Notes under the pieces: generated by a model
Told to the model about the DNA's origin: nothing
Database searches by the model: none
What the model saw: the letters and a program-made list of their open reading frames with translations, nothing else
Made by a program: the position numbers and the translations under genes
NCBI GenBank assembly: GCA_016234365.1
Contig: JACRER010000079.1
Coordinates: 15,154-79,153, forward strand
Direction: 5' to 3'
Length of the DNA stretch: 64,000 nucleotides
From: Elusimicrobiota bacterium
GTDB taxonomy: Bacteria > Elusimicrobiota > Elusimicrobia > Elusimicrobiales > UBA9959
In this document: positions 37,047-54,862 of the stretch, in pieces
How positions within the stretch are numbered: the first letter of the stretch is position 1
Layout: each line of letters starts with the position of its first letter

Positions 37047-38174
37047 ATGAAAAAAACTTCCCTGTCCCTCGCCTGCCTTTTCTCTATACTCCCTTTTTCG
37101 CTCTCTCACGCTTCCGGCCTGGGCCTGCCCGGGGATCCCGCTTCCGTAGAGGTGCCTGCCGTGCAGGCCCCCGCGCCGGACCAGAACGCGATGATGAAGG
37201 AATATTTCGATTATTACTCCGCCCTCAAGGTCTACTCCAACGTGGCCTTCGTCTCTCCCCAGAACAGCCCCGCTTACCTGGAAGCCGCCGCCGCCGGGCA
37301 GTACCTGCGCTCCAGGCTCGAAAATGCGGGCGCGCGCCTCTCCAGCGAGGCCGGCGTTTCCCGGGAAACCCTCAGCCATATCAGCGACAGGCGCGGCGCC
37401 GCGGTTTCCTGGACCGTGCAGAGCGAGCTTAACGACGTCTTCGGTTTCAACGTGCCTGGCGGTATCCGCGGGGACGAGTCGCGCGGCGTGCCGATCAAGG
37501 CCGGCTACTGCCAGATCAACTACGTAAAGAACAACACCCCCTTCCTGGTCCAGTACGACGGTTTCCTTAATAAGGGCGAGGTCATCCTCACTTTCGACGA
37601 CGGCCCCGGCGCGCTGACCGAGGAGGTCTCCGCGGCCATGAAAGAGGGCAACGCCCCTTCCGTTTTCTTCGTGCTGGGCCGCAACATAACCGGCGAGACC
37701 GGCCGTGCCCGCATAAAGGCCGAGGCGGCCGACGGCCACTCGGTGGCGGTGCACGGCTATAACCACGCAGCGGCCGGCGACAAGCCTTTCACGGCCATGT
37801 CCACCGAGGAAGCCGTGAAGCAGCTGGGCGGCGTCAAAGGTTCCATAAAGGATACTACCGGCGCCGCGCCGAAACTTTTCAGGCCGCCCTACGGCATAAT
37901 CACCGTGGAGCAGCTGAAGGCCGCCGATTCCGAGCTGGGCCTGATCCCCGTCGGTTGGACCATAGATACCCTGGACTGGTCCACCAAGGACCCGGAAGCC
38001 CTTTTCCAGAATACCGTGAAGATGATACAGCAGCGCGGCAAAGGCATAGTGCTGATGCACGACATCCACGCGCAGAGCCGCACCGCTTCCAAGCGGCTGG
38101 TGGGTTGGCTGGCCGAGAACGGCTACAAGGTGGTTTCACCCGAGCGGATAGTGAAGGCTTACAGAGGGGAATAA
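37047..38174 (+). CDS. secreted polysaccharide deacetylase (CE4 / NodB domain)
   Basis: SD AAGGAG. Signal peptide. NodB motifs TFDDGP, HGYNH, FRPPYG, VLMHD. Confidence 0.85.
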   Translation: MKKTSLSLACLFSILPFSLSHASGLGLPGDPASVEVPAVQAPAPDQNAMMKEYFDYYSALKVYSNVAFVSPQNSPAYLEAAAAGQYLRSRLENAGARLSSEAGVSRETLSHISDRRGAAVSWTVQSELNDVFGFNVPGGIRGDESRGVPIKAGYCQINYVKNNTPFLVQYDGFLNKGEVILTFDDGPGALTEEVSAAMKEGNAPSVFFVLGRNITGETGRARIKAEAADGHSVAVHGYNHAAAGDKPFTAMSTEEAVKQLGGVKGSIKDTTGAAPKLFRPPYGIITVEQLKAADSELGLIPVGWTIDTLDWSTKDPEALFQNTVKMIQQRGKGIVLMHDIHAQSRTASKRLVGWLAENGYKVVSPERIVKAYRGE

Positions 38175-39167
38175 TTAGCGGGAATTTTCCAGTTCTTTGA
38201 CCCAGGCTTCGGCCTCGGCCATGGCGGCGTCCGACGAGGGCGCCGCTTTTCTTTTGAGCCCGTAGAGGACCCGCAGCAGGGCCAGGGCCGGGCGCGGCAG
38301 GAAACTGGCGGAGAGCAGCTTAAGGAAAACCGGTCCGCGCGAAGCGGCGAGGAAAAGATACTCCCGGGCCTTTCCGGGCTGGAGGTTCTTCAGGTATACC
38401 TCGGCCTGCTTCAGGTAGACATAGTCTTTCAGTTCGCGTCCGGCAGCCTCGGGCGGCGCGGCCGTTTCCAGGGCGGCGCGGAAATCCGCTATGCCGTCGT
38501 CCCACTTCAGCGTAAGGCTCGAAGGATTTGCCGAAAGCCCGTGGATGCGGTATACCGACAGCGGTTGGGCTATGAAGTCCGCCTCCCAGTCCCGCAGTAT
38601 CTTCACATAAAGTTCCATGTCCTCCAGGTGGCTAAGGTCCTGGCGGAACGGCCCGGTTTTTGCCAGGACCTCGCGTTTAAAGGCCACGTTGGTGGTGACG
38701 TAGGGCAGCCACTTGTCGGAGATGGCCATGTAGGGCGGCAGCTTGCCGCGAGGAACGGCTCGGCGTTCGTCGAAAAATTTGGAGGTGAGGCGTCCCTCGC
38801 GCAGGATGTAGCCGTTGGAGAAAATAAATCCCGCGGCCGGGTTGCGCCCGATCAGGTCCGCGAATTTTTCCAGCCGGCGCGGCAGCCACAGGTCGTCCGC
38901 GTCCAGGAACGTGATATAGTCCCCGGCTGCGCGCTCCATGGCGTAGTTGCGGCAGCCGCCCTGACGGCGGTTCTCTTCGAACCTGATGAAATTCCAGCCC
39001 TGCTTTCCCGCGAACTCTTTGAACACCTCCGGGGTGGCGTCCTTCGAACCGTCGTCGATTATGAAGGCCTCGTAATCCGTGAAAGTCTGCGCGGCCAGGC
39101 TTTTAAGCGTGAGGCGCAGCAGGTCCGCGCGGTTGTAGGAAGGGATTATTGCGGTGAAGAGCGGCAT
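38175..39167 (-). CDS. family 2 glycosyltransferase with helical C-terminal extension
   Basis: Start trimmed to MPLFTAIIPSYNRADLL...DDGSKD...LDADD. 2 nt after the stop of the upstream gene. Confidence 0.85.
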   Translation of the reverse strand: MPLFTAIIPSYNRADLLRLTLKSLAAQTFTDYEAFIIDDGSKDATPEVFKEFAGKQGWNFIRFEENRRQGGCRNYAMERAAGDYITFLDADDLWLPRRLEKFADLIGRNPAAGFIFSNGYILREGRLTSKFFDERRAVPRGKLPPYMAISDKWLPYVTTNVAFKREVLAKTGPFRQDLSHLEDMELYVKILRDWEADFIAQPLSVYRIHGLSANPSSLTLKWDDGIADFRAALETAAPPEAAGRELKDYVYLKQAEVYLKNLQPGKAREYLFLAASRGPVFLKLLSASFLPRPALALLRVLYGLKRKAAPSSDAAMAEAEAWVKELENSR

Positions 39168-39169
39168 TG

Positions 39170-40372
39170 TCAGCGGCTCCCGAGCCTGCCGCCCAGCAGG
39201 GCCAGCGCGCGCAGCGCCCCGCCGGCGAAGCCGCGCAGGAAAGCGGCGGGGCCGTAGCCGAACAGGCGCCCCGCCATGCCGGCGGCGCCGGAGAAATTGC
39301 CGCGCCGCAGCAGGGAGAACATGGTGAAGGCCAGGCAATTGACGGCCTTGGCTTTGAACGCGCCGCTAAGGAAGACCGGCAGGTCCGCCGGGTTGGCCAG
39401 GTCCTTGTCCGCCAGGGCGGCGGCCAGGGCTTGCGCGGTAGTTTTGGCGTAGGCCTCCGGAGTGTACTCCCTCATGGCCCTGGCGTGGGCGGCGGCCGCC
39501 ATGGCTTCCCGCTTGTCCGGGTTGGCCAGGTAGTAGCGCACCTTCTCCAGCAGTTCTTCCTTGCCGGAGAAGACGTCTATTTCGCGGCCCACTTCGAACA
39601 TCTCCCCGATGGCCGGGGAGCGCTCGGTAAGGCAGAAAGAACCCGCGATAGCTATTTCCCTTGGCCTGCCGGTGTTCTGGCGCACGCGGTTGAGGATGGG
39701 TTCGTCGCCGTTTATCCAGTCCGGATCGGCCAGCTGCGAAAAATTAAGTACTACCTTGCTGCGCGACTGGACGTCGTAGATCTTGTCGGGGGCGAGGTAG
39801 CCGTTGGCTGAACCGGCGCCGTAGACCACCGGCTTCAGGCCGTTGGCTTCGAGATGGCCGATATAGCCGCGGCGGCCTTTCTTGCGCATGTCGCCTACGA
39901 AGCAGACGTCTATGTCGCGGGCCTTGGCCGGAGGAGTTATTGCGTTAGGGACCACTATCTCCTGGCAGAGCACCGCCGGGATGCCCAGCCGCCGGTAGGC
40001 GTGAACGGCCAGGTGGTCCGCGGTTATCACCGCGTCGCCGGCCTGGGCGTAGTATTTGCAGTAGGAATCGAAATAGGTGGAATCGTCGGCGAACCAGAAG
40101 ACCACTTTTACGGAACTGCGCAGCGCCGCGAAGAATTCAGGCGATAACTGGAAGTCGGTGGAGAAGGGGCAGCAGATCAGGATGTCCGGGCGGTCGAGCC
40201 GCACCGCCCGGGTTATGGCCTCTTCGGCCGCGGCGGCGCCGAGGCCGTAGACCAGGTCGGCGTAATTTACCAGTTTCACCTCGCCGAAATGGGGCAGGAA
40301 CGGGTCGAAACGCCGCACGAACCCGTTGAGGTCCGTGGGGTAGAGGATGAGGATGTTCTTGCCTTGCGTCAT
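39170..40372 (-). CDS. CgeB-family glycosyltransferase-like protein (DUF3880 + Glyco_trans_1_2-like)
   Basis: VCFVGDMRKKGRRGYIGHL..., NRVRQNTGRPREIAIAGSFCLTE, ELLEKVRYYLANPDKREAMAAAAHARAMREYT match the CgeB-like pattern from memory. Confidence 0.6.
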   Translation of the reverse strand: MTQGKNILILYPTDLNGFVRRFDPFLPHFGEVKLVNYADLVYGLGAAAAEEAITRAVRLDRPDILICCPFSTDFQLSPEFFAALRSSVKVVFWFADDSTYFDSYCKYYAQAGDAVITADHLAVHAYRRLGIPAVLCQEIVVPNAITPPAKARDIDVCFVGDMRKKGRRGYIGHLEANGLKPVVYGAGSANGYLAPDKIYDVQSRSKVVLNFSQLADPDWINGDEPILNRVRQNTGRPREIAIAGSFCLTERSPAIGEMFEVGREIDVFSGKEELLEKVRYYLANPDKREAMAAAAHARAMREYTPEAYAKTTAQALAAALADKDLANPADLPVFLSGAFKAKAVNCLAFTMFSLLRRGNFSGAAGMAGRLFGYGPAAFLRGFAGGALRALALLGGRLGSR

Positions 40373-40378
40373 CGGGCC

Positions 40379-41701
40379 TCAGAGCAGCGGCCGCTTGCGT
40401 TTGTCGTAGTCGTCGTAAGCTTTCTGCTGGTACTTCATCAGATCTTCGTCCGAAACCTCGGACAGGTTGGCCGCCACGCGCTGGTAATAGGTGTAATCGC
40501 AGTAGTCGTCGGGGTCGTGGCCGGTCAGCAGGCCGCGCTCCACGGCCATCTCGTGCAGGCGGGTGCCAGGGTACGGGGTGGAGATCATGAACTTGGCCAC
40601 TTCGGAGTCCAGCTCGTTGGCGAAGTCCAGCGTGGCTTTGATGGACTCATGGGTGTCGCCGGGCAGCCCTACGATATAGCTGGTCACGCACGGCAGGCCG
40701 GCGTCCTTAAGGATGCGCACGGCCTTGCGGATCTGGTCCTTGGTCTCGCCCTTGCGGATCAGTTTGAGGATCTTCTCGTCCCCTGATTCCACGCCGATGG
40801 CCACCGCGAAACAGCCGGCGCGCTTGAGCGTGGCGGCCAGCTCCGCGTCCAGCGTGTCGGCGCGCGACTGGACGTAGAAACGGATCTTGAGGCCCTTCTT
40901 AATGAGCGTCTCGCAGATCTCGGTGGCGCGGCGCTTGTCTATGGTGAAAGTGTCGTCGTAGAACATGAACTCGCTGATGCCGAACTTGTTGACGAGCAGT
41001 TCTATCTCGGCGATGATATCCGCCGGCGGGCGCAGGCGCGTCTTGCGGCCCCAGATCACCTTCGAGGCGCAGAAGATGCAGTCGAACGGGCAGCCGCGGC
41101 CCAGGATCAGCCCGGCGTGCGCGCCCTTGAAGGTGGAGGGGTCGCGGTAGGCGTCCAGCTCCAGCAGGTCCCAGGCGGGCAGGGGCAGGGCGCCAAGGTC
41201 CTTCAGGAGCGGGCGCAGCGGGTTCACCACGGTGCGGCCGCCGGCCCGGTAGATCAGGTTCAGGATGGCGTCGGGGGATTTGCCGGCCTGCAGGGCGTTG
41301 AGCAGCTCCAGGAACGGCTCCTCGCCCTCTCCCGCCACCGCGTAGTCCACGCAGGCCTCGTCCAGGGCGCGCTTCGGGTCGCCGCTCACGTGCGGACCGC
41401 CGAAGACCACCGTGGTCCGCGGCGAGGCTTTCTTGCATTCGGCCGCTATTTTCAGCGCCGCCGGGTAGCGCGGCGTCAGGCAGGTAAAGCCCACCAGGTC
41501 GGGCTTGCTGTCCAGTATTTTCGCGGCCAGCTCCGCGGGGGTGCCGCCGTGTATGTCGAAATCTATGATGCTGACTTCGTGGCCGTGCGGGCGCACGTAG
41601 GCGGCCAGTATCGCCAGGTTGGTGGGGGTGCGGAAAACCTTCTGCTGCTCCCATTTGCCGGAGCGCTGGAAATTGGGCGGTTCGACCAGTACTATTTTCA
41701 T
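40379..41701 (-). CDS. B12-binding-domain (class B) radical SAM enzyme
   Basis: N-terminal cobalamin-binding-like Rossmann (KIVLVEPP...LAILAAYVRPHGHEV...DLVGFTC). CxxxCxxC as GCPFDCIFC. Confidence 0.85.
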   Translation of the reverse strand: MKIVLVEPPNFQRSGKWEQQKVFRTPTNLAILAAYVRPHGHEVSIIDFDIHGGTPAELAAKILDSKPDLVGFTCLTPRYPAALKIAAECKKASPRTTVVFGGPHVSGDPKRALDEACVDYAVAGEGEEPFLELLNALQAGKSPDAILNLIYRAGGRTVVNPLRPLLKDLGALPLPAWDLLELDAYRDPSTFKGAHAGLILGRGCPFDCIFCASKVIWGRKTRLRPPADIIAEIELLVNKFGISEFMFYDDTFTIDKRRATEICETLIKKGLKIRFYVQSRADTLDAELAATLKRAGCFAVAIGVESGDEKILKLIRKGETKDQIRKAVRILKDAGLPCVTSYIVGLPGDTHESIKATLDFANELDSEVAKFMISTPYPGTRLHEMAVERGLLTGHDPDDYCDYTYYQRVAANLSEVSDEDLMKYQQKAYDDYDKRKRPLL

Positions 41702-41722
41702 CTTAGCGGTGTCTCCCGGGCC

Positions 41723-42781
41723 TCAGAACGGGCCCTTGAATTCCTTGTAGAGGCGTTTTTTGTACTCGGCGGACGGCAGTTCCACGCCGTGGTCCTTCCT
41801 GCCTTTCGCCAGGCGGCAGATCGCGTCGGCGACGGTGCCCATGTCGGGGTAGAAGTGGTTCTCCAGCGTCTTGGCCGTGGGACAGGGCGAATGCGCCTGC
41901 GCTATTTCAATTATGGGGGCCTTCAGCAGGCCGGGGTCGGACGTGGCTACCAGGCGCGAAACTTCCGCGCAGACGCCGAACGGCGCCCAGCCCGCGTCGG
42001 CCACCACCAGGCGGCCGGTCTTGCGCAGGCTGGCGAGCAGCATTTTGGAATCCAGCCGCGTCAGGCAGTGCAGGTCTATGACTTCCGCCTCTATGCCGGC
42101 GCGTTCGCTGAGGAACTTGGCGGCGTTAACGGCGTCGGCCACCATCACGGAGGTGGCAGCCACGGTCACGTCTCGGCCTTCCCTGACCAGGCGCGAGGTG
42201 AAAGGGTCGGGCTGGGGCTTAAGGCCGTCCATGTTGAAGGAATAGTCGTAAAGCGAACGGTGCTCGAACGAGACCACGGGGAAGCGCGCCTTGGTGGCGG
42301 CGTACTCGTAGGTATCCAGCACGCTCTGCGCCGAGGCGGGCATCACCACGGTGAGGCCCGGCACGTGCGACAGCAGGGCCTGCAGGCTCTGGGAATGCTG
42401 GGCGCCCTGGCCCCAGCTGCGGCCTATCACGGCCCGGATCAGGAGCGGCAGTTCGAACAGCCCGCCGTACATGTATTTGTACTTGGCGATGGAGTTCACC
42501 AGCTGGTTCATGGCCAGCAGCATGAAATCCGCGCGGATATGGATATGGACGGGGTAGATGCCGTTGAGGGCCGCGCCCACGGCGAAACCGGTCATGGCGT
42601 CCTCGGAGAGCGGCGTGTCGAACACGCGGCCCGGCCCGAAATCCTTCTCGAGACCCAGCGTGGTGCCGAAGATGCCGGTGAAATCCGTGACGCCCAGGCC
42701 GTAGACCACCGCCGACGGGTTCTTCTCCAGCGCGCCGCGCATGGCCTGCGCCAGCGCCTCCCTGTAGGTCATGGTCTTCAT
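41723..42781 (-). CDS. ThDP-dependent dehydrogenase E1 beta-like subunit (transketolase Pyr and C-terminal domains)
   Basis: MTYREALAQAMRGALEKNPSAVVYGLGV...FDTPLSEDAMTGFAVGAAL...GAQHSQS. ATG at 42781 shares one nt with the alpha-subunit stop (TGATG). Confidence 0.85.
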   Translation of the reverse strand: MKTMTYREALAQAMRGALEKNPSAVVYGLGVTDFTGIFGTTLGLEKDFGPGRVFDTPLSEDAMTGFAVGAALNGIYPVHIHIRADFMLLAMNQLVNSIAKYKYMYGGLFELPLLIRAVIGRSWGQGAQHSQSLQALLSHVPGLTVVMPASAQSVLDTYEYAATKARFPVVSFEHRSLYDYSFNMDGLKPQPDPFTSRLVREGRDVTVAATSVMVADAVNAAKFLSERAGIEAEVIDLHCLTRLDSKMLLASLRKTGRLVVADAGWAPFGVCAEVSRLVATSDPGLLKAPIIEIAQAHSPCPTAKTLENHFYPDMGTVADAICRLAKGRKDHGVELPSAEYKKRLYKEFKGPF

Positions 42782-43704
42782 CAGCACACGTCCTTGAGCA
42801 CTTCGTCGCAGGAGGGGAAGGGCGAGCGCTCGGCAAAGTCCACGGCGGCCGCTATTTCCCTGTCCAGCTCCGACTTGAATTTAGCTATCAGCGTTTTGTC
42901 GGTGGCCAGCGGGTCGCGGGCCCGCCAGGCCTCGTACTCGGCCCTGTCGCGGTAGCCTTTGTCGAAATCCTGCGCCACTCCGACGTGCTGCATGTAGCGG
43001 TAGGCGCGGATCTCGTAGACCTCGGGGCCGCCGCCGGCGCGCACGCGGGCGGCTATGCGGCCCGCGGCCCCGGCCACGGCGGGCATGTCCAGCCCGTCTT
43101 TGGAAAGAGTGTAGGGTATGCCGTACGCCCCGGCTAGCTTTTCCAGCGAGAAAGCCTGCCGCGTCGCCAGGTGGGAGTGGATGGCGAGGCCGTTGTTCTC
43201 TATCACGAACAGGAGCGGCAGTTTTTTGAGCGCCGCGAAGTTGAGGCATTCGTGGAATACGCCTTCCTCGGTGGAGTCGTCGCCCGTCAGCGACACCACT
43301 ATCTCGCTGCGGCCGCGCAGCTGGAAGGCGTAGGCGGCGCCGAGCGCGTGGGAGAGCGTGGCCGCTACGATGGCCGAGGAGCCCATCAGGCCCGTCTCCG
43401 GCCAGCAAAGATGCATGGAGCCGGCCTTGCCCTTGGAGACTCCGGCCGCCTTGCCGTAAAGTTCGGCGAACATGCGCGGCATGTCGCCGCCCTTGGCCAG
43501 GTAGGCGGCGTGGCTGCGGTAAGTGGTGTAGAGCTGGTCGGTATCCGCCAGCGCGGCTATGAGCGCCGCCGTGTGCGGCTCCTGGCCTATGGACAGGTGC
43601 ACGGGGCTCTGGATCTTGTCGCTGGGGTAGATCTCGGCGATCTTTTCCTCGGCCAGGCGGATGCGCAGCGCCTGGCGGAACATTTCCTCGTAGGAGGTTT
43701 TCAT
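42781..43704 (-). CDS. ThDP-dependent dehydrogenase E1 alpha-like subunit
   Basis: Start trimmed to MKTSYEEMFRQALRIRLAEEKI. SPVHLSIGQE, YRSHAAYLAKGG, ThDP motif GDDSTEEGVFHECLNFAALKKLPLLFVIENN. ATGA overlap with the upstream gene. Confidence 0.85.
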   Translation of the reverse strand: MKTSYEEMFRQALRIRLAEEKIAEIYPSDKIQSPVHLSIGQEPHTAALIAALADTDQLYTTYRSHAAYLAKGGDMPRMFAELYGKAAGVSKGKAGSMHLCWPETGLMGSSAIVAATLSHALGAAYAFQLRGRSEIVVSLTGDDSTEEGVFHECLNFAALKKLPLLFVIENNGLAIHSHLATRQAFSLEKLAGAYGIPYTLSKDGLDMPAVAGAAGRIAARVRAGGGPEVYEIRAYRYMQHVGVAQDFDKGYRDRAEYEAWRARDPLATDKTLIAKFKSELDREIAAAVDFAERSPFPSCDEVLKDVC

Positions 43705-44693
43705 CTGCCGGCCTCCCGGGCGACTTCCGCCCGGCAGTGCTCCAGCAGGAAGGCCACGCTGTCCTTGAAGGAGTAGCGCGGCTTCCAGCCGGTCTGCCGC
43801 GCGAACTTGCGCACGTCCGGGATCTGGAGGGTCACGTCGGTGGGCCTGAAAAGTTTCGGGTCGGGCTTGGAGGGGACGGGGCACTTGGCCAGTTTCTTGA
43901 GCAGCGCCAGGAACTCGCCCACTTTTATGACGGTAGTGCCGCCGATGTTGTAGGCCTGGCCGAACTCACAGCGGTTCATGGCCGCCCAGTAGGACGCCAT
44001 GGCGTCGCGCACGTCTATGAGCGTGCGCGTGGAGTCCAGGTTGCCGTGCAGCAGCGTCTTCTGCAGGCCGGCCTCGATGCGGGCCACCTGCATGGCGAAC
44101 GACGTGGCGAACAGGTCCGCGCGGCGCGGGTTGAGGTAGGCGAACATGCGGGTGCGGATAACCTTCATGCCGTAGTTGGCGAAGTAGGTGTAGCCCAGCA
44201 GGTCCTGCGCCGCCTTGGAGACGGCGTACGGGCTGGCCGGGCGGAAGCGGCATTCCTCGGAGATCGGCACGTCCTTCTTTTCCACCTGGCCGTAGACCTC
44301 GGAGGTGCTGCACAGCTGTATTACCGGGTTGGCGCCGGAAGCGCGGACCGCTTCGAACAGGTTGGCCGTGCCCATGACGTTGTTGTTGAGCACCGCCAGC
44401 GGCGTGGCGAAGGAGGCGCGCACGTTGGCGTGGGAGGCGATATGGAAGATGCCGTCGGGGCGCACCGCGCGCACCGTGTCCAGCACGGACTTGAAATCCA
44501 GCAGGTCGCATTCGTGCAGGGTCACGCGGCCGCGGCACAGGGCGAGGTTCTTGCCCGAGGAAGTGCTGTGCCAGCGCGAGATGCCGTGGACGGCCGTGCC
44601 GGGGTGGTTGTCCGCTATATAGTCCGCCAGGTAGCTGCCGCCGGAGCCGGTGATGCCGGTGATTATGACCCGCTTGAATTTCCTGTTCTTCAT
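43701..44693 (-). CDS. NDP-sugar 4,6-dehydratase of the GDP-mannose dehydratase (Gmd) type
   Basis: ITGITGSGGSYLADYI, HIASHANVRASF, STSEVYG, PASPYAVSKAA, NLDSTRTLIDVRD parallel Gmd motifs. Confidence 0.75.
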   Translation of the reverse strand: MKNRKFKRVIITGITGSGGSYLADYIADNHPGTAVHGISRWHSTSSGKNLALCRGRVTLHECDLLDFKSVLDTVRAVRPDGIFHIASHANVRASFATPLAVLNNNVMGTANLFEAVRASGANPVIQLCSTSEVYGQVEKKDVPISEECRFRPASPYAVSKAAQDLLGYTYFANYGMKVIRTRMFAYLNPRRADLFATSFAMQVARIEAGLQKTLLHGNLDSTRTLIDVRDAMASYWAAMNRCEFGQAYNIGGTTVIKVGEFLALLKKLAKCPVPSKPDPKLFRPTDVTLQIPDVRKFARQTGWKPRYSFKDSVAFLLEHCRAEVAREAGR

Positions 44694-45631
44694 CAGACGT
44701 TCCCGTACCTGGAATTGCGCAGGATCGCGTAGCCTTTTATGAGCTCGTCGATGCCGTCGTCCAGGGAGTAGCCGGGGCGGAAGCCCGTCTTCTCTATCTT
44801 TTCGTTGGAAACTATGTAGTCGCGCTTGTCCACGTCCTCGCCTACCGGGGACTCCAGGTAGACGAACTTGGGCAGGTGCTCCTTGATCTTGGCGCAGAGC
44901 TGCAGTTTGGAGAGATTGGCCTGGCTCAGGCCCACGTTATAAGCCCCGCCGCGCATCTTGCCGAACTTGTTGAGCACGTGGGAGAAGGCCTTGGCCACGT
45001 CCATGATGTGTATGTAGTTGCGGCGGAAGTGGCCTTCGAAGATGATGACGAAGCGGTCGGTGACGGCCCGGTAGACGAAGTCGTTCACCAGCAGGTCCAG
45101 GCGCATGCGCGGCGACATGCCGAACACCGTGGCCAGGCGCAAGCTGACCGAATTTTCGCGGGCCAGTACGGCTTTCTCCGCGTCCACTTTTACGCGGCCG
45201 TAGAGGGAAATGGGGTTCAGGGGTGTCTTTTCGGTGCAGTACTTGTCTTTGGCGCCTATGCCGTAGCCGCTGTTGGTGGTGGGGTAAACTATGCGCTGCT
45301 CCCTGGCGGCGTTCCTGGCTATCCAGCGCACCGCCTCGAAGTTGACGGTTTTGGCGGCGGTGACGTCGTTGTCGCAGAGCGGGGCGCCTACCAGCGCCGC
45401 CAGCGGGATGACCACGTCCGCCTTTTTCAGCAGAGGTTTAACCTTGCGCGGGTCGCGCGCGTCGCCGCGCACCACGTTGAAGGCTTTGTTGCGGCAGCAG
45501 TCGGCCAGGGAATTCTGGCCGTACATGAAATTATCCAGCACGGTGACCCGGTGGCCCAGCGAAAGCAGCTGCGGTACCAGCACCGACCCAAGGTAACCGG
45601 CCCCGCCGGTTACGAGTATGTCCTGTCCCAT
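44693..45631 (-). CDS. NAD(P)-dependent sugar epimerase/reductase (extended SDR)
   Basis: VTGGAGYLGS Rossmann motif; YGRVK (YxxxK). 1-nt overlap with the downstream gene. Confidence 0.8.
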   Translation of the reverse strand: MGQDILVTGGAGYLGSVLVPQLLSLGHRVTVLDNFMYGQNSLADCCRNKAFNVVRGDARDPRKVKPLLKKADVVIPLAALVGAPLCDNDVTAAKTVNFEAVRWIARNAAREQRIVYPTTNSGYGIGAKDKYCTEKTPLNPISLYGRVKVDAEKAVLARENSVSLRLATVFGMSPRMRLDLLVNDFVYRAVTDRFVIIFEGHFRRNYIHIMDVAKAFSHVLNKFGKMRGGAYNVGLSQANLSKLQLCAKIKEHLPKFVYLESPVGEDVDKRDYIVSNEKIEKTGFRPGYSLDDGIDELIKGYAILRNSRYGNV

Positions 45632-45661
45632 TTTTATCTCCGTCGCGGCCCTCGCGGGCCG

Positions 45662-46864
45662 CTATATCTTTCCAGTTAAGAACCGTTTCGTCAGTTCTAT
45701 GAAATAGTCTATGTGTTCCTCGTTGATGTCCTGGTGCAGGCCGATGTGCAGGCCGTTGTCGGCGCAGTATTCCGCCTCGGGGAATTCGCCGAGCTTGTGC
45801 CCCAGGAAAGAGAAGCCCGGGCACTGCGTAGGCATGGAGAGGAACAGGCTGCGGGTGTCCACGCCGTTGTCTTCAAGGTACGTCATGAGCTGGTCCCGGG
45901 TGAACTTGGCGCCGGGGGGCACCAGCACGGGGAAAGCGTAGGGCGCCATCTCCTCGCCGGCCACTGGGTCTATGGTCAGCAGGTGCGGTTTGAGGGCGGC
46001 GAACTGCTTGTGGATATACTTGAAATTGCGCAGGCGCGCCGCGAAGATCTTGGGGTAGATGTCCAGGTAGCCCAGGCCGATGGCGGCCTCCAGTTCGTTC
46101 ATCTTGGCGGAGAAGCCCACGCGCTCGAAGATGAAGCGGATGTCGGTGCCGCGCTTGAAGCGCTTGTCGCAATGGCCGCCGCTGACGCTCATCATGCAGG
46201 TTTCGCATTTGCAGGCGCGGCCGTGCGCGCGCAGCGAGCGCAGGGTGTTGGCGTATTCCGGGTTGTTGGTGGCCACTATGCCGCCCTCGCCGGTGGAGAT
46301 GACGTGCGCGATGTAGAGGCTGAAGGCCGCCATGTCGCCCAGCGTGCCTATCTCCTTGCCGCGGTAGGTGCCGCTCTGCGCTTCGGCCGCGTCCTCCACC
46401 ACCAGCAGTTTGTGCTTCTTGGCGACGCGGTTAACGGCCTCCATGTCGGCCGGTTTGCCCATCAGGTGCACGGGCATGATGGCCCTGGTGCGCGGGCCGA
46501 CGGCGGCCTCTATCTTTTTAGGATCGATGTTGAGGGTGGTCCGTTCTATGTCCACGAATTTGGGGATAAAGCCGGCCTGCAGCACGGCGTTGCCGGTGGC
46601 CACGAACGAGAGCGACGGGACGATGACCTCGTCGCCGCGTTTGGCGCCGAGGTCGTAGAGCACGGCCAGCGCCAGCGCGTCGGCGTCGGTGCCCGAGGAC
46701 ATGGCCACGGCTTCCTTGGTGCCGACCAGCTTGGCGAAGCCGCGCTCGAATTCGCGCACCAGTTTGCCGCCGGAGATGCGGCCGGAGTCCAGCGCGCCGT
46801 TCACCAGCTGTTTGGTCTTGTCGGTTATCGTTATCGTGCCGAAGGGGTAGCGGAGTTTTTTCAT
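45662..46864 (-). CDS. DegT/DnrJ/EryC1-family PLP/PMP enzyme with His replacing the Schiff-base Lys (E1/ColD-type sugar 3-dehydratase candidate)
   Basis: AFSLYIAHVISTGEGG has His at the position 5 residues before GEGG where aminotransferases have Lys. Cys cluster CKCETCMMSVSGGHC starts 31 residues after that His. Confidence 0.65.
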   Translation of the reverse strand: MKKLRYPFGTITITDKTKQLVNGALDSGRISGGKLVREFERGFAKLVGTKEAVAMSSGTDADALALAVLYDLGAKRGDEVIVPSLSFVATGNAVLQAGFIPKFVDIERTTLNIDPKKIEAAVGPRTRAIMPVHLMGKPADMEAVNRVAKKHKLLVVEDAAEAQSGTYRGKEIGTLGDMAAFSLYIAHVISTGEGGIVATNNPEYANTLRSLRAHGRACKCETCMMSVSGGHCDKRFKRGTDIRFIFERVGFSAKMNELEAAIGLGYLDIYPKIFAARLRNFKYIHKQFAALKPHLLTIDPVAGEEMAPYAFPVLVPPGAKFTRDQLMTYLEDNGVDTRSLFLSMPTQCPGFSFLGHKLGEFPEAEYCADNGLHIGLHQDINEEHIDYFIELTKRFLTGKI

Positions 46865-47559
46865 ACCAGATGCCCTGCTTTCCTGAGTACGGCTTCCGCC
46901 GTTGCGTATCTTTCCGGGGTGCCAATATCGAGCAGCGGCGCCGCGGTCCTGAACCCGTAAAGCCTGCCGAGCCGGGGGAACAGGTCGTATTCGAAAGAGT
47001 ATTTTTTGCCGGCGGGTATTTCCGCAAGCAGCGACCTGTCCAGCAGGTAGACTCCCGCGTTCACCAGGCCGCCGGCCTTGCGCCCCGTCTTTTCAAGGAA
47101 GGCGGTTATCCGGCCTCCGGCCGCCAGCCGCACCGTGCCCACGTCGCCGCGGCCCGAGGGTTTGGCCAGCGCCACCGAGGCCAAGGCCCGCTTGCGCCGG
47201 TGGAAGGCCGCGAAACGTTTCAGGTCCACCGCGCAGAAAGAATCCCCGTTGAGTACCAGGAAGCTGGTCCCCTTTATGAGCCGCCGCGCGTTCTTTACCG
47301 CGCCGGCCGTGCCCAGGGGTTTGGCTTCCACGGAGACGGCTACGTCGGCCGCCGCGGCGTAATGCCGCTTTATGACCCCGGCCCTGTAGCCGGCGCACAG
47401 CACGAACCTGCGCACTCCGCGCCGGCGCAGGCCCGCCAGCAGCAGGTCCAGAAAAGGCTTGCCGGCCACCTCGGCCATAGGCTTGGGGCGGCCTTTAACC
47501 GCCGCCCGCAGGCGCCGTCCGAGGCCGCCGCAGAGGATGACCGCTTCCGGGCCGGTCAT
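46861..47559 (-). CDS. sugar-1-phosphate nucleotidyltransferase (HddC/ManC-like)
   Basis: AVILCGGLGRRLR...KPMAEVAGKPFLD, PLGTAGA, NGDSF. ATGA-type overlaps on both sides. Confidence 0.8.
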   Translation of the reverse strand: MTGPEAVILCGGLGRRLRAAVKGRPKPMAEVAGKPFLDLLLAGLRRRGVRRFVLCAGYRAGVIKRHYAAAADVAVSVEAKPLGTAGAVKNARRLIKGTSFLVLNGDSFCAVDLKRFAAFHRRKRALASVALAKPSGRGDVGTVRLAAGGRITAFLEKTGRKAGGLVNAGVYLLDRSLLAEIPAGKKYSFEYDLFPRLGRLYGFRTAAPLLDIGTPERYATAEAVLRKAGHLV

Positions 47560-48557
47560 TTCCAGTCGGTCCCGTGCGAATAATAAATTATCTGGCTGCC
47601 GAAGTACTCGAACTTAAAGGGAATGAACAGCAGGTCCTTCAGCGCTTCCTTTATCTTCGCCTGCTTTTCCGGCTCGGCGTAAAAGAGCATGAACCCGCCG
47701 CCGCCGGCGCCCAGCAACTTGCCGCCTTCGGCGCCGCAGCGCAGCGCGGTCTCGTGGATCTGGTCGATGTGGGAGTTGCTGATCTTGCCCGACAGGGAGC
47801 GCTTCATCTTCCAGGTCTCGTTGAGCAGGCGTCCGAAAGCCGGCAGGTCCGGCTTGTGCGCGGTGACGAGCCCGCAGGCCTCGTCCACCAGGGCGGCCAT
47901 GCGCTCGAGCTCGCGCCCGTTGCGCCCGACGTTGGCTATCTGTTCGTGCGCTATGTCGGAAGCGTTGCGCGACAGGCCGGTAAAGACCAGCATCAGCCGG
48001 TTCTCCAGGGCCGCCACGTTCTCCGTGGTCATGATCACCGGGGAAACCACTATCTCCCGGTTGGGAAGGAATTCGATGCGGTTAAAGCCGCCGTGCGCCG
48101 CGAACACCTGGTCCTGCGAGCCCACGTTCTCGGCTATATCGTTCTGCTCTATGTCGATGGCGAGCTCGCCGAGGTCGCCCTTGGAGATGGCCTTGCCGTC
48201 CATGGCGTGCATGGCGTTGAGCAGCCCCACCGTGAAGGCGGAGCTGGAGCCCATGCCGGAGCGGGCCGGGATGTCCCCGTCGTGGTGTATGGAAATGCCT
48301 TTGGCGTACTTGAGGCGTTTGAGCACGGCCTTGACCGCCGGGTGGGCGATCTCGTCTATCTCCTTTACGTTCTCCATGCGGGAATAGACGATGCGGTGCT
48401 TGTGTTCGAAGAAGGGGGGGAGTTCGCGGACTATGAGGTAGCAGTATTTGTCTATGGCGGCGCCCAGCACCTTGCCGCCGTGCTTGAGATACCAGGACGG
48501 GTAGTCGGTCCCGCCGCCGAAAAATGAGATCCTGTGCGGAGTCTTGGTTATGATCAT
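47556..48557 (-). CDS. GHMP-family sugar kinase (HddA / fucokinase-like)
   Basis: ATG at 48557 gives MIITKTPHRISFFGGGTDY. GHMP motif PARSGMGSSSAF. Confidence 0.8.
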   Translation of the reverse strand: MIITKTPHRISFFGGGTDYPSWYLKHGGKVLGAAIDKYCYLIVRELPPFFEHKHRIVYSRMENVKEIDEIAHPAVKAVLKRLKYAKGISIHHDGDIPARSGMGSSSAFTVGLLNAMHAMDGKAISKGDLGELAIDIEQNDIAENVGSQDQVFAAHGGFNRIEFLPNREIVVSPVIMTTENVAALENRLMLVFTGLSRNASDIAHEQIANVGRNGRELERMAALVDEACGLVTAHKPDLPAFGRLLNETWKMKRSLSGKISNSHIDQIHETALRCGAEGGKLLGAGGGGFMLFYAEPEKQAKIKEALKDLLFIPFKFEYFGSQIIYYSHGTDWK

Positions 48558-48582
48558 AGGCCCGGCCGCGCCGGAAACCAAT

Positions 48583-48610
48583 ATTATATTAATAATTAAA
48601 GGCCGTTCAA
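48583..48610 (-). promoter_or_regulatory. sigma70-type promoter internal to the glycan locus
   Basis: Reverse strand reads TTGAAC-16 nt-TATAAT, about 25 nt upstream of the kinase ATG. It overlaps a weak GGCCG/CGGCC hairpin plus T-rich run just after the methyltransferase stop. Confidence 0.5.
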
Positions 48611-48623
48611 ACGGCGGCCGGGG

Positions 48624-49604
48624 TCAGCCGCGGCGGGCGGCTATGGCGAACAGCTGGGTGCCGCGCCCGGGCCGCGTCAGCCTGTAGTAGAGCATCATCC
48701 AGAAGAAGACCGGGAAGGTGAACACGTGCAGGACGTCGTAAAAAGCCTTTACCAGCCGCTGGCGCGTCCTGGCCGAGCGCAGGAAGCCGGGCGTGCCGGC
48801 GCCGGCGGCGGCCGCCGCGGTGAAGGTGACCGAGTCGGGGGTGCCTTTGGGCAGCAGCACGGCCCGCGCCGCCTTCATGGCCAGTTCCCGCAGCGCGCTG
48901 ATGAAGCGCCGCGAAAATTCCCAGACCGGCAGGTAGGAAGAATCCAGCCGAACTATCTCCAGCCCGTGGCTGGCCAGGAAGGCCGTAAGCGCGCCGCGCG
49001 TCCAGCGGGTCAGGTGGTGGGGCGGCATGTCGAAATAATCGCGCCCGAACGGCAGCGGCCGGTCGGTATTGGGCGTGGTCAGGGCCAGCTGCCCGCCGTC
49101 TTTGAGCAGCGAGGAGATCCGGTCCAGTTCGGCGTTGGGATCGTCGAGGTGTTCGATGCAGTCGAAATAGGTGATGAGGTCGAACTTCAGGCCGGGGAAT
49201 TTTTCGCGGAAGGCGTTAAGGTCGCCCATGAAGAGGTTGGCGAGGCCTTTTGCGCGCGCCGCCGCTATGGCCTCGGGGTTGATGTCTATGCCGTAAGCCT
49301 CGAAACCGGCCGCCTGCGCCATCGCCAGGAAGACGCCGGTGCCGCAGCCTATGTCCAGCGCCAGCCGGCCGCGTCCGTCTTGGCCGCGCAGTACCTCTTT
49401 AAAATGGGGCTTGGGGGTTTCCTCGTAGCCGGCGGCGCTGGAGAACCTGGCGTACCAGCCGGCCCCCGGGTTTTTAAAGGGGTCCGCGAATTCCACGCCG
49501 CAGCCGGCGCAGCGCAACACGGCGTAGGAGGCCTTGTCCACCGGGTCCAGCCAGGTTTCCAGGCGCGTGTGCGCGGAGACGGAGCCGCAGACGGGGCAGT
49601 TCAC
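48624..49604 (-). CDS. class I SAM-dependent methyltransferase with N-terminal zinc ribbon and C-terminal hydrophobic tail
   Basis: CPVCG...CAGCG. Motif I LDIGCGTG. Motif post-II ITYFDCIEHL. Confidence 0.8.
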   Translation of the reverse strand: MNCPVCGSVSAHTRLETWLDPVDKASYAVLRCAGCGVEFADPFKNPGAGWYARFSSAAGYEETPKPHFKEVLRGQDGRGRLALDIGCGTGVFLAMAQAAGFEAYGIDINPEAIAAARAKGLANLFMGDLNAFREKFPGLKFDLITYFDCIEHLDDPNAELDRISSLLKDGGQLALTTPNTDRPLPFGRDYFDMPPHHLTRWTRGALTAFLASHGLEIVRLDSSYLPVWEFSRRFISALRELAMKAARAVLLPKGTPDSVTFTAAAAAGAGTPGFLRSARTRQRLVKAFYDVLHVFTFPVFFWMMLYYRLTRPGRGTQLFAIAARRG

Positions 49605-50575
49605 GCGGCGCTCCCGGAGCGCGGAGAGCGCAGCCTGGCGTAGAAGGAGTGCAGGCGCAGATAAAGGGAGGGGCTCAGGACGGAAAAGACCAGCGTCGCC
49701 GCGGTGAAAAAACGGCGCGGGGAGGAGCTGCGGAGGACCTCTTTTATGATGGTCCCCAGCGCGGCCCGGCGTTCGCCGCGGCGGGAATAGTAGAGGACGC
49801 GGGCTTTGGCAAGTTCCATGGGCAGCGGCACGTTCGTCTTCTTTATATCCACGCCGGCCGCCTTAAGCCTGGCGGCCAGTTCCTTAAGGATCACCGCCTT
49901 GACCTTGATGTAGTTGCCCAGGCGGCGCGTGTCCGCCATGGTGCCGGCGAACCAGTTGGCGCCGTGGATCTTCTTGAAGCCGAGCACCGAATTTATGGAC
50001 CGGACGCGGGAGTGGATAAGGATGCAAAGGTAAAGGTACTCGTCGGCGCAGTAGAAGAGGCCGGCGGGCACGGGCAGGACCCTGTCGAGGAAGGAACGGC
50101 GGAAAGCCAGCCCGCTGGTGCCGGTGAAACTCGCCCGGCCTTCCAGCAGGTCCTTGAGTTCGTAATGGTCCGGCCGCCGGTCGAACTGCTGGCTCAGCGG
50201 GTTGCCGGCCGGGTCCACGTCCATCATGAAATGCTGCACCATGCCGATATCCGCGGCTTCGGCGAAGGCCGCGGCCGCGGCCTTGAGCTTGTCCGGTTTC
50301 CACGCGTCGTCGGCGTCCAGCAGGCAGACGAACTCCCCGGAGGCTTCCCTGAGCCCGGTGTTGAAGGCCGAGGCCTGCCCCGAGTTCTCCTGGTAAAAAT
50401 ATTTTACGCCTCGGCCGTACCTGGCCAGGCGCAGCGCGGTGTCGTCGGTGGAACCGTCGTCCACCACTATCAGCTCAAATTCCCCGCGCGGGAAGTCCTG
50501 CGCGAGTACGCTGTCCACCGCTTCCTCTATGTAGCGGCCGTAGTTGTAGGTGCCTATGATGACCGAAAATTTCAC
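49601..50575 (-). CDS. family 2 glycosyltransferase
   Basis: KFSVIIGTYNYGRYIEEAVDSVLAQ...VVDDGSTD...LLDADD. Confidence 0.88.
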   Translation of the reverse strand: MKFSVIIGTYNYGRYIEEAVDSVLAQDFPRGEFELIVVDDGSTDDTALRLARYGRGVKYFYQENSGQASAFNTGLREASGEFVCLLDADDAWKPDKLKAAAAAFAEAADIGMVQHFMMDVDPAGNPLSQQFDRRPDHYELKDLLEGRASFTGTSGLAFRRSFLDRVLPVPAGLFYCADEYLYLCILIHSRVRSINSVLGFKKIHGANWFAGTMADTRRLGNYIKVKAVILKELAARLKAAGVDIKKTNVPLPMELAKARVLYYSRRGERRAALGTIIKEVLRSSSPRRFFTAATLVFSVLSPSLYLRLHSFYARLRSPRSGSAA

Positions 50576-52008
50576 GCCGCCCCTCCGTCCCGGCCGAAGC
50601 CGGCGGTGCGCGCCAGCAGGGCCAGGTCTTCTCTGGTAACGCCTTTCAGCAGCAGCAGCGCGGCGGCGTAGGCAGCGGCGCCCGCCCCGATAAGGAGAAA
50701 AACGTTGCGGCCGCCCAGGGCCGCCAGCAGCAGCGCCATCAGCGCCGAGGCCGCCAGCGGCTTCAGGGACTGCCTGAGCGGCACCGTGTAGACCGCGCGG
50801 GTCTGGAAATAATAGACGGCGTTGGTGACGCCGTAGGAGGCCACGAAGGAGGCCGCCAGCCCGACGGAGCCGTAAACCGGGATCAGCAGCAGGCCCAGGG
50901 CCACCGACAGCAGCGCCTGCGTGAAGCTGATCCAGAGGTTCTTGTTCTGCTTATGCGCGGCCAGCAGCGAGAAGGAAAAAATATTGTTCAGGAAGATCAG
51001 GTACGGCAGCACCGCCAGGACCTTCAGGAGCAGCCCGGCCTCCAGGAATTTGTCGCCGTAGATCAGGTGGATGATGGGGTCCGCCAGCATGAAGAGCCCC
51101 GTTATGGCGGGGTAGCTGACTATGGCCATCCATTTCAGCGTCACGTCCATTATTTTTTTGAAGGTTTCGGGGTTGTGCAGGTAATGCTTGGAGATGGCGG
51201 GGAACACCGCCGCGGCATAGGCGACCAGGGCCTCGACGAGGATCCAGATGATCTTGTAGGCGGCGGAGAAATAGCCCACTTCCTGCGTACCGCGCGTGAA
51301 GCCCAGGATGGTCACCCCGGAGTTGAGGACTATTATGGTCATCACGCCCCAGACGGCCACCGGCAGCGTCTGCCTGAAAACCTCTTTGGAGAATTCCGGG
51401 ACGAAGCGGAAAGCGTAGCCGGGATCGAGGCGGCGGTAGGCCAGGAACATGAAGAGGACGGCGGCGGCCTGCGCGGCCAGCAGCAGCAGCGGGATGCGCG
51501 GCAGGTCGGCGCTGCCGCCCACGAACAGCAGCACGGCGCCCAGGTAGACCAGCCCCTGCAGGACCGCGGCGGCGCCCAGGAATTCCATCCGCTCTATGCC
51601 CTGGAAGACCCAGTCGAAGGTAAGCACGTTGGCCGTGAACATGGTCAGGCCGTAAGCCGCGGTGAGCAGTTTCAGTTCCCGGCCCTGCGGCATGAAAAAG
51701 GCGAAAGCCGCCAGCAGCGTGAACGAGGCCAGGCCCAGCACCAGCTTCAGGCTGATGTTGGCGTTGATGTAGTCTCCCTGGCCGGCCTGCCGCTGGGCCA
51801 ATTCGCGGATGCCTACGGTGCCCAGGCCCAGGTGCGCCAGGATGGCGAAATAGCTGACCAGCGCCAGCGCGAAGTTCATGGCCCCGAAATCCTCCGGGCC
51901 CAGCACGCGCGCCAGGTACACCACCGTCATCAGGCCGAAGGCCTTTGAGACGGCGTTTGAGAAGGTGAGCGACAGGAAATTCCTGAAAATAGTGCTGCCG
52001 GCGTTCAT
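50572..52008 (-). CDS. MOP/Wzx-type polysaccharide flippase
   Basis: 478 aa, about 12-14 TMs. N-terminus FRNFLSLTFSNAVSKAFGLMTVVYLARVLGPEDFG is typical of the polysaccharide biosynthesis protein family. Confidence 0.85.
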   Translation of the reverse strand: MNAGSTIFRNFLSLTFSNAVSKAFGLMTVVYLARVLGPEDFGAMNFALALVSYFAILAHLGLGTVGIRELAQRQAGQGDYINANISLKLVLGLASFTLLAAFAFFMPQGRELKLLTAAYGLTMFTANVLTFDWVFQGIERMEFLGAAAVLQGLVYLGAVLLFVGGSADLPRIPLLLLAAQAAAVLFMFLAYRRLDPGYAFRFVPEFSKEVFRQTLPVAVWGVMTIIVLNSGVTILGFTRGTQEVGYFSAAYKIIWILVEALVAYAAAVFPAISKHYLHNPETFKKIMDVTLKWMAIVSYPAITGLFMLADPIIHLIYGDKFLEAGLLLKVLAVLPYLIFLNNIFSFSLLAAHKQNKNLWISFTQALLSVALGLLLIPVYGSVGLAASFVASYGVTNAVYYFQTRAVYTVPLRQSLKPLAASALMALLLAALGGRNVFLLIGAGAAAYAAALLLLKGVTREDLALLARTAGFGRDGGAA

Positions 52009-53139: not shown

Positions 53140-53150
53140 TAAGGACGGCT

Positions 53151-53840: not shown

Positions 53841-53909
53841 AATTTGACGTTTTTTTGTCCTTTACAGGACCCCCTGCCGACTAGACTATAGTCAGGACCA
53901 GGAGGGGTT

Positions 53910-54815: not shown

Positions 54816-54862
54816 GGCCGCGGGCGCGGCGCGGTGTTCAGGTTGTTGCTGCCGGCGGCCGG

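Follow-up and report, generated by a model that had tools for sequence, protein, structure and literature searches.

Sugars that carry a carbon branch are made by more than one kind of thiamine diphosphate (ThDP)-dependent enzyme, and several such systems bear on the subject of this analysis, a cluster of 13 glycan genes at 38175-52008 within a 64,000-nucleotide stretch of DNA from an Elusimicrobiota bacterium (GenBank contig JACRER010000079.1, positions 15,154 to 79,153; the whole stretch is referred to here as the window). In antibiotic biosynthesis, C-branching of sugars with pyruvate by enzymes of the alpha-KADH2 type has been established by knockout and feeding for aldgamycin and in vitro for kibdelomycin, using KbDH-alpha/beta (PMC12247030), while alpha-KADH2 pairs have been proposed to act likewise in avilamycin and paulomycin (PMC12247030, PMC4753412, PMC9306805); the resulting acetyl branches can be reduced by the aldo-keto reductase (AKR) Pau7 (PMC4753412). 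YerE, for its part, adds a C2 unit to 3,6-dideoxy-4-keto-glucose activated with cytidine diphosphate (CDP) (PMC12247030, PMC4753412, PMC9306805), and a review of the field associates YerE-like enzymes with cell-envelope glycans, and alpha-KADH2 enzymes and transketolases with antibiotics, adding that there is as yet no experimental structure for any ketone-accepting ThDP carboligase, and that the role of the transketolases is unproven even in the miharamycin and amipurimycin pathways (PMC12247030). As regards heptoses activated with guanosine diphosphate (GDP), Cj1427 of Campylobacter jejuni is a GDP-heptose C4-dehydrogenase whose bound NADH is recycled with alpha-ketoglutarate, and in vitro a C3-dehydratase acting together either with Cj1427 or with the 4,6-dehydratase yields 3-deoxy-4-keto-heptoses, the form that retains its 6-hydroxyl being reported at [M-H]- 616.08 (PMC10680097).

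Taking the 13 genes together, we estimate a probability of roughly one in two that they serve to make and export a surface glycan containing a rare branched sugar derived from GDP-heptose, the individual biochemical steps being proposed from homology and gene neighbourhood. In this scheme D-glycero-D-manno-heptose, supplied by GmhA and GmhB encoded elsewhere in the genome, would be activated by an HddA-like kinase and an HddC-like guanylyltransferase. A keto group would then be introduced at C4 by a DmhA-like 4,6-dehydratase (giving a 6-deoxy sugar), by a Cj1427-like C4-dehydrogenase (which would keep the 6-hydroxyl), or by both, and a DegT-family enzyme of the His-variant type would strip off the 3-hydroxyl, leaving a 3-deoxy- or 3,6-dideoxy-4-keto-heptose. 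The E1 alpha/E1 beta pair would decarboxylate pyruvate on ThDP, and attack of the hydroxyethylidene-ThDP carbanion on the C4 ketone would produce a 4-C-acetyl tertiary alcohol, i.e. a nine-carbon branched sugar. A B12-dependent radical S-adenosylmethionine (SAM) enzyme, variable from strain to strain, would then tailor this sugar, the Glyco_trans_1_2 and GT2 glycosyltransferases would transfer it, a methyltransferase would decorate the glycan, and a Wzx-type protein would flip it.

What the locus has in common with the alpha-KADH2 systems (AviB1/AviB2, Pau11/Pau12, the aldgamycin pair and KbDH) is a free-standing E1 pair, without E2 or E3, beside a short-chain dehydrogenase/reductase (SDR) that forms a keto sugar, often with an AKR or SDR nearby for the acetyl branch; AKR genes also accompany many relatives of the locus. 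The likeness is one of gene context and fold, and the known alpha-KADH2 enzymes work on deoxyhexoses or pentoses carrying (deoxy)thymidine diphosphate in Gram-positive secondary metabolism, whereas here GDP-heptose genes stand in a Wzx-type glycan locus. With yersiniose A the locus shares an order of steps, namely 4,6-dehydration, 3-deoxygenation by an enzyme of the E1 (RfbH) type (a sugar 3-dehydrase, not to be confused with E1 alpha/beta) and ThDP-dependent C2 addition at C4, as well as its destination in a surface polysaccharide. However, that pathway uses CDP and a hexose scaffold rather than GDP and a heptose, and YerE is a single-chain flavin/ThDP enzyme of the decarboxylase (AHAS-like) superfamily, unlike the E1 pair; none of the 13 locus proteins contains domains of the YerE type (TPP_enzyme_N/M/C). 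Five enzyme types of the C. jejuni capsular GDP-heptose system (HddA, HddC, the 4,6-dehydratase, Cj1427 and the HS:5 C3-dehydratase) have homologues here, but the C. jejuni system ends with epimerases and C4-reductases, which are absent from this locus, E1 alpha/beta and the radical SAM enzyme being found instead; nor is GmhA in the locus. Finally, the split-gene transketolases of miharamycin and amipurimycin, for which hydroxyacetyl branching is proposed, resemble those of three relatives of the locus (L092-L094) that lie beside heptose, DegT and radical SAM genes of the same kinds; unlike any of these, the window contains no transketolase.

The probable sugar scaffold and predicted formation of the 4-keto group

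Gene families were assigned using Pfam and NCBIfam, and structural homologues from matches to PDB chains. All 13 of the minus-strand genes listed in the initial annotation were recovered as consecutive open reading frames (ORFs), and each was placed in the family given there. That annotation had left open a heptose in place of a hexose scaffold, and the heptose is now the better supported of the two, since the best solved homologues of the kinase, the nucleotidyltransferase (NTase), the dehydratase and the Cj1427-like SDR are all GDP-heptose enzymes, from the Campylobacter or Yersinia pathways. The kinase finds its closest structures among heptose kinases (3K85, 4N3O and WcbL 4USK, at about 1e-43) and has HddA as its top NCBIfam model; the NTase is closest to 6JQ8/5XHW, “6-deoxy-D-mannoheptose pathway protein” (1e-35), its NCBIfam matches to ManC(Rv) and HddC both being below cut-off. 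For the dehydratase the top PDB match is 7US5 (1.9e-50), with CSTSEVYG and YAVSK aligned as the catalytic S/T-x-E and YxxxK; Rmd comes second and GMD is also matched, and a reductase role of the Rmd kind is possible for this protein.

The fourth enzyme, an SDR, aligns without gaps over residues 1-311 with PDB 6VO6/6VO8 (E 8e-112, about 62% identity), the 6VO6 chain being a 313-residue protein of C. jejuni which, going by the depositor's name and by Huddleston et al. 2020, we take to be Cj1427. This SDR had previously been cast as a possible reductase of the branched product, a role that does not sit well with such identity to a C4-dehydrogenase that forms a 4-keto group; it is therefore likelier to be a second 4-keto former, and together with the 4,6-dehydratase-like SDR would give the locus two enzymes of that kind, although it could instead reduce the branch. 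In two related loci (L090 6591-7802 and L091 6100-7215) a gene for a DAO-family flavin adenine dinucleotide (FAD) oxidoreductase adjoins the kinase, NTase and Cj1427-like genes; purely as speculation, this might be an L-2-hydroxyglutarate oxidase regenerating alpha-ketoglutarate for a ping-pong dehydrogenase of the Cj1427 type.

The strongest competitor, and the first choice of the initial annotation, is a hexose scaffold (GDP-mannose or another nucleoside diphosphate-hexose), from which a yersiniose-like 3,6-dideoxy-4-C-(acetyl/hydroxyethyl)-hexose, an octose, would be made. It would account for the fact that neither gmhA nor gmhB lies in the 64-kb window, and for the scores of the kinase (163 bits against a cut-off of 600 for HddA) and the NTase (133 against 300 for HddC), which are far below the respective equivalog cut-offs, as well as for the dehydratase, which is likewise below its heptose equivalog cut-off and matches GMD and Rmd besides; in addition, what the DegT enzyme most resembles in its N-terminal half is GDP-perosamine synthase, an enzyme that works on a GDP-hexose. 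Against it stand the four heptose-pathway proteins that are the best solved homologues here, one of them about 62% identical, and the presence of GmhA, GmhB and NTase-GmhB fusions inside related clusters (GmhB-like genes in 30 of 87 related loci, GmhA in seven of the 87). Moreover, an anomeric kinase of the GHMP family would be superfluous for the synthesis of GDP-mannose. On balance we consider a hexose scaffold unlikely.

Predicted deoxygenation and the E1 alpha/beta pair

A His residue in place of the catalytic Lys had been predicted for the DegT enzyme, and this is borne out by FSLYIAHVISTGEGG, which puts His where perosamine synthase has its catalytic Lys and Yersinia E1 its His220. Over its full length the protein matches PDB entries 3BCX (E1) and 2GMS (ColD), and its top NCBIfam model is RfbH, at 270 bits against a cut-off of 423. 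An insert with four cysteines, CxCx2Cx8-10C, is kept along with the His in orthologues; it overlaps the Fe-S ligand region of Yersinia E1, where its CxC corresponds to C251/C253 and is followed by two further Cys. Other loci with E1 alpha/beta genes also have ColD-type His variants of DegT. From these alignments the protein is most likely a sugar 3-dehydrase of the E1 (RfbH)/ColD type.

The two genes that follow the dehydratase match the heteromeric E1 alpha/E1 beta ThDP fold, and E1 alpha falls within a tight subfamily, recognisable by the motifs DKIQSPVH and GKAGSMHL, that tracks sugar genes across phyla. On grounds of fold and gene context, the pair fits an alpha-KADH2-like enzyme adding a C2 unit to a sugar. 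Its relatives, whose ORFs were called using a GC3 filter, were examined in two sets: neighbours were counted in 42 GTDB loci having full 10-kb flanks, while Lpd and Gmh genes were sought in 87 loci (L001-L087). Around E1 alpha in the former set there is very often a DmhA-like SDR (37/42), a further SDR (38/42) and an HddA-like kinase (32/42), and in about half of the loci a large B12-radical SAM protein (24), an AKR (23) or an RmlC-like epimerase (22); an NTase-GmhB fusion is found in 15. On plasmid AZO_p6 of Azospirillum lipoferum 4B the genes for an NTase-HAD fusion, a Cj1427-like SDR (66% identical to that of the window), E1 alpha and E1 beta (AZOLI_RS29260/29255) and a ColD-type (SHH) DegT enzyme are contiguous. 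The trio of a 4-keto-forming SDR, a His-variant DegT enzyme and E1 alpha/beta is found again beside genes for heptose activation in distantly related taxa, A. lipoferum among them, which speaks for the logic originally proposed for the locus, i.e. activation, 4-keto formation, 3-deoxygenation and ThDP-dependent C2 addition.

The Cj1427-like proteins form a very large and highly conserved family, and clusters of this kind are reached again when the search starts from them. On a contig from Nitrospirae, such a gene is accompanied by GmhA, kinase and NTase genes together with both E1 alpha/beta and a split transketolase. On a contig from JGI, GmhA, Wzm/Wzt and an HddC-GmhB fusion are encoded, and the Cj1427-like gene is followed immediately downstream by a split transketolase. 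Because searches from the E1 alpha, Cj1427-like and radical SAM proteins converge in this way, a recurring unit can be recognised from gene content, predicted to comprise GDP-heptose activation, 4-keto formation, often 3-deoxygenation, and a ThDP-dependent enzyme forming a carbon-carbon bond, followed by reductases, methyltransferases or radical SAM enzymes.

Variants of the ThDP step occur among the relatives. In three of them (L092 9001-11726, L093 11355-14114 and L094 5165-7897) a split transketolase, with N and C halves, replaces E1 alpha/beta and comes directly after a Cj1427-like or other SDR, suggesting that hydroxyacetyl rather than acetyl is transferred there. In two others (L009 15012-16999 and L086 12118-14113) a further E1 alpha/beta pair is encoded that has diverged from the first (37-43% identity), and such loci may have two ThDP-dependent steps in one pathway. 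Homologues of E1 alpha/beta on Streptomyces plasmids (41-45% identical) were considered as a possible bridge to the sugar clusters of antibiotics but proved uninformative, one lying in a butyrolactone and non-ribosomal peptide synthetase/polyketide synthase region and the other having no sugar genes nearby.

The radical SAM slot and competing readings

The radical SAM protein contains a B12-binding domain and, in the sequence GRGCPFDCIFC, the CxxxCxxC core; in these respects and in its sugar-pathway context it is like AprD4, GenK, Fom3, TokK and HpnJ, but with 440 residues it is shorter than most methylases and reaches no family cut-off. All 32 of its NCBIfam matches, headed by HpnJ, BchE and ApyD, are below threshold, and the top PDB match is the diol dehydratase AprD4 (6FD2, 7e-39). 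C-methylation, the role originally suggested, survives as one option, but the closest structure is AprD4, the top model is HpnJ and no methyltransferase cut-off is met, so that methylation, an AprD4-like dehydration and a rearrangement are all to be entertained as its predicted chemistry. Homologues of the protein occur with kinase, NTase, DegT and SDR genes together with either a split transketolase or E1 alpha/beta.

A comparison with the nearest species representative, Elusimicrobia bacterium GWA2_62_23 (L006), is instructive in this regard. All 13 genes are present there, 12 of them in the same order, the methyltransferase gene having moved. The core enzymes are 83-95% identical to those of the window, and the flippase (74%) and second GT2 enzyme (87%) are also syntenic; the radical SAM protein, in contrast, is only 30% identical despite occupying the same position, with 54% for the Glyco_trans_1_2 protein and 38% for the methyltransferase. 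Such exchange of the radical SAM slot between close relatives while the core is kept fits a late, diversifying tailoring step. Compared with window positions 39170-41701, the corresponding segment of L006 (11986-14573) looks as though the radical SAM and Glyco_trans_1_2 genes had been replaced as a cassette. The Glyco_trans_1_2 protein has no NCBIfam or PDB match; its gene adjoins the pathway in L001, L003, L005, L006 and L093, and from this position it is likely to transfer the special sugar, which would fit with a tailored product being read by the adjacent glycosyltransferase.

The AprD4 match invites a different scheme, in which a radical SAM step on the 6,7-diol of the heptose would generate a side-chain carbonyl to which the ThDP enzyme adds its C2 unit, extending the chain to give a linear higher-carbon sugar, the 4-keto chemistry then serving only deoxygenation and epimerisation. 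Aldehydes are the usual acceptors of transketolases, and a split transketolase does fill the E1 alpha/beta slot in relatives; furthermore, among solved structures it is AprD4 that comes closest to the radical SAM protein, and the 440-residue family of this protein is always accompanied by a ThDP enzyme. Nevertheless we judge chain extension to be very unlikely, for the AprD4 match covers the radical SAM core only and scores 156 bits against a cut-off of 500, lower than HpnJ and BchE, the slot is exchanged among close relatives that keep E1 alpha/beta, as would be expected of late tailoring, and some E1 alpha/beta loci have no radical SAM gene whatever, while the precedents for both alpha-KADH2 enzymes and split transketolases use ring keto sugars (PMC12247030).

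It might also be supposed that the locus makes two sugars, a branched 6-deoxyheptose produced by the DmhA-like enzyme and E1 alpha/beta (with or without the radical SAM enzyme) and an unbranched 3-deoxy-heptose produced by the Cj1427-like and DegT enzymes, both being incorporated by the three glycosyltransferases of the locus. Some serotypes of C. jejuni do hold both a dehydratase and Cj1427 and make two heptoses (PMC10680097), one relative (L001) has the two modules in divergent operons, and most E1 alpha/beta loci have the DmhA-like gene without a Cj1427-like or E1-type DegT gene. However, no candidate for a C4-reductase is found in the window, both SDRs being already assigned, and in A. lipoferum the Cj1427-like, E1 alpha/beta and ColD-type DegT genes are contiguous in the absence of a DmhA-like gene, tying that module to the ThDP step; division of the locus between two sugars seems to us a very doubtful proposition.

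Least credible of all is the idea that E1 alpha/beta belongs to an ordinary pyruvate or acetoin dehydrogenase and simply happens to lie in a glycan locus: although pyruvate dehydrogenase (PDH) E1 subunits provide the top NCBIfam and PDB matches (human PDH E1 alpha for the latter, 2e-34) and the active-site His residues are kept in both subunits, the scores are under the equivalog cut-offs (E1 alpha, 238.7 bits against 393.85 for PDH_E1_alph_y; E1 beta, 246.7 against 321 for PRK09212), AcoA-type proteins are only about 38% identical, the subfamily motifs follow sugar genes across phyla, and the 4-nt overlap of the dehydratase stop codon with the E1 alpha start points to translational coupling of the pair to the dehydratase gene. 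E2 or E3 partners in relatives had been named as the finding that would speak for such an enzyme, and none came to light, tblastn with an E. coli Lpd sequence as query detecting no E3 either in the window or in the 87 loci, and 14 Pfam-annotated contexts containing no Biotin_lipoyl or 2-oxoacid_dh (E2) domain. It is because of the sub-cut-off scores and the lack of E3 in these loci that we set the ordinary enzyme aside. The His motifs themselves (YRYxxH in alpha, QHSQ in beta) were dropped as a test for a carboligase, as they fit a lipoyl-dependent E1 equally well.

Returning to the branched GDP-heptose derivative, a number of observations count against it, beginning with the low kinase and NTase scores and the missing gmh genes already described. 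The ThDP motif of E1 alpha, expected to read GDG-X26-NN, here reads GDD...NN (G143D, codon GAC at 43276-43278), while a metagenomic protein with 99% identity to it (P0001) has GDG and the remaining 19 homologues in the alignment read GDG or GEG; the only changes from the window protein to P0001 are D54N, D143G, S278P and S294A. The GDD form may reflect an error of assembly or a variant of this strain, or else the allele may be impaired or hypomorphic. The [2Fe-2S] motif of E1-type dehydrases is C-X57-C-X-C-X7-C, and these enzymes work with an E3 reductase partner; the DegT enzyme has Ala at the position of C193, the first Cys of the motif in Yersinia E1, and no gene for an E3-type reductase lies within the locus. 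With a dehydratase and a C4-dehydrogenase both present, there may be two products, or the steps may follow some other order, and C4 is inferred to be the site of carbon-carbon bond formation by analogy with the known systems.

More generally, we would tentatively suggest that ThDP enzymes (E1 alpha/beta or split transketolase) and B12-radical SAM enzymes together build sugars of at least nine carbons, branched or chain-extended, from GDP-4-keto-heptoses in hundreds of species, a class for which we came upon no description. Such sugars would belong to surface glycans and possibly flagellins, in Elusimicrobiota, Nitrospirota, Alphaproteobacteria (Reyranella, Azospirillum), Cyanobacteria and Bacteroidota, with the radical SAM and glycosyltransferase slots as diversifying positions. 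In one relative (L087 1-9100; GCA_900093605.1, FLYE01000046.1) a cluster of E1 alpha/beta, kinase and split transketolase genes adjoins FliF, FlgE, FlgD and Glyco_trans_1_2, and GT41 and TPR genes are found near the cluster on AZO_p6 (L088); judging by these neighbours, some members of the pathway family may glycosylate flagellin.

Each kind of enzyme involved is known. The initial annotation was aware of no described locus with this combination, and indeed no surface-glycan locus joining GDP-heptose genes to a ThDP carboligase of the E1 type and to a radical SAM enzyme in a variable slot was found in the searchable literature; the combination is by no means rare, however, the E1 alpha subfamily being present in 507 GTDB species from many phyla. 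Yersiniose, erwiniose and caryophyllose, the known C-branched sugars of bacterial surfaces, are built on hexoses by enzymes of the YerE type. If the proposed pathway is correct, alpha-KADH2 and transketolase enzymes would also serve envelope glycans, on a heptose scaffold, constituting a second and widespread route to branched cell-envelope sugars; a nine-carbon sugar derived from heptose would be predicted, of which we found no description; and the GDP-heptose tool-kit of Campylobacter would gain carbon-carbon bond formation. Cultivable organisms in which this could be tested would include Azospirillum lipoferum 4B, Reyranella soli and Terasakiella, and new ketone-accepting ThDP carboligases could become available for biocatalysis.

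Gene organisation and surroundings

Table 1. Features of the glycan locus, with window coordinates, in order of transcription (aa, amino acid residues).
Feature	Coordinates	Strand	Basis
Wzx-type polysaccharide flippase, 478 aa	50572..52008	-	Pfam Polysacc_synt 1.5e-31, Polysacc_synt_3, MurJ
GT2 glycosyltransferase with hydrophobic C-terminal segment, 324 aa	49601..50575	-	Pfam Glycos_transf_2 3.5e-33
Class I SAM methyltransferase, 326 aa	48624..49604	-	Pfam Methyltransf_23 1.1e-25
Candidate sigma-70-like promoter, TTGAAC-16-TATAAT	48583..48610	-	10/12 consensus matches
HddA-like GHMP sugar kinase	47556..48581	-	Pfam GHMP_kinases_N/C
HddC-like sugar-1-phosphate guanylyltransferase, 232 aa	46861..47559	-	Pfam NTP_transferase
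Predicted E1(RfbH)/ColD-type sugar 3-dehydrase, pyridoxal/pyridoxamine phosphate (PLP/PMP)-dependent	45662..46864	-	Pfam DegT 4.5e-95
Cj1427-like NAD-dependent GDP-heptose C4-dehydrogenase, extended SDR, 312 aa	44693..45631	-	PDB 6VO6/6VO8
GDP-heptose 4,6-dehydratase-like SDR, DmhA-like, 330 aa	43701..44693	-	Pfam GDP_Man_Dehyd 3.5e-64
ThDP-dependent E1 alpha, sugar-cluster subfamily, 307 aa	42781..43704	-	Pfam E1_dh 1.7e-46
E1 beta	41723..42787	-	Pfam Transket_pyr + Transketolase_C
B12-binding-domain radical SAM enzyme, 440 aa	40379..41701	-	Pfam B12-binding + Radical_SAM
Glyco_trans_1_2 (CgeB-like) glycosyltransferase	39170..40372	-	Pfam PF13524 1.8e-22
Second GT2 glycosyltransferase, 330 aa	38175..39167	-	Pfam Glycos_transf_2 1.2e-33

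The genes had been described as chained throughout by overlaps of 1-4 nt. This holds for seven of the 12 junctions, five of which have an overlap of 4 nt, while the SDR and dehydratase genes overlap by 1 nt, as do E1 alpha (at its stop codon) and E1 beta if the latter begins at ATG 42781; the other five junctions have gaps of 2-66 nt. E1 alpha starts at 43704 (MKTSYEE) rather than at 43884, the second GT2 gene starts at 39167 (MPLFT), and the true start of the kinase is probably ATG 48557 (MIITKTP). The methyltransferase carries a Cys4 ribbon at its N-terminus and a membrane segment at its C-terminus, and all of its NCBIfam matches are below cut-off. The promoter said to split the locus into two units is present on the minus strand, reading from 48610 to 48583, in the only AT-rich intergenic gap, just past the stop codon of the methyltransferase gene. 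It is the best of four promoter-like sites in 14.5 kb, but because 2.3 +/- 1.4 are expected from shuffled sequences it is plausible rather than statistically compelling, and the division into two units is to that extent only suggested.

Recent horizontal transfer of the locus was also considered and rejected, the GC content being the same in the locus (0.63-0.66) as in its flanks. Housekeeping genes surround it (FtsH, CdaA and the MreBCD-PBP2-RodA group), together with a probable ribosomal-protein operon in the flank, judged from ORF sizes alone, and an Rfam scan of the entire window gave no match. Convergent with the locus, at 37047-38174, is a gene for a secreted polysaccharide deacetylase, while the opposite flank (52114-56828) has a divergent gene for a GDPD phosphodiesterase, along with genes for an OmpR-type regulator, a lipoprotein resembling CsgG, a response regulator of one domain and a hybrid histidine kinase with a GAF domain. 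Towards the end of the window, between 57000 and 64000, the GC content falls from about 0.62 to 0.48-0.57 and the GC skew is strongly positive. The ORFs in this part encode an OmpR-type response regulator (57415-58140), a protein with a phage tail collar domain (58329-59315), an M23 peptidase of 738 residues (60889-63105) and two proteins without a Pfam match, and the region has the look of a phage-tail-like element or an island of foreign origin.

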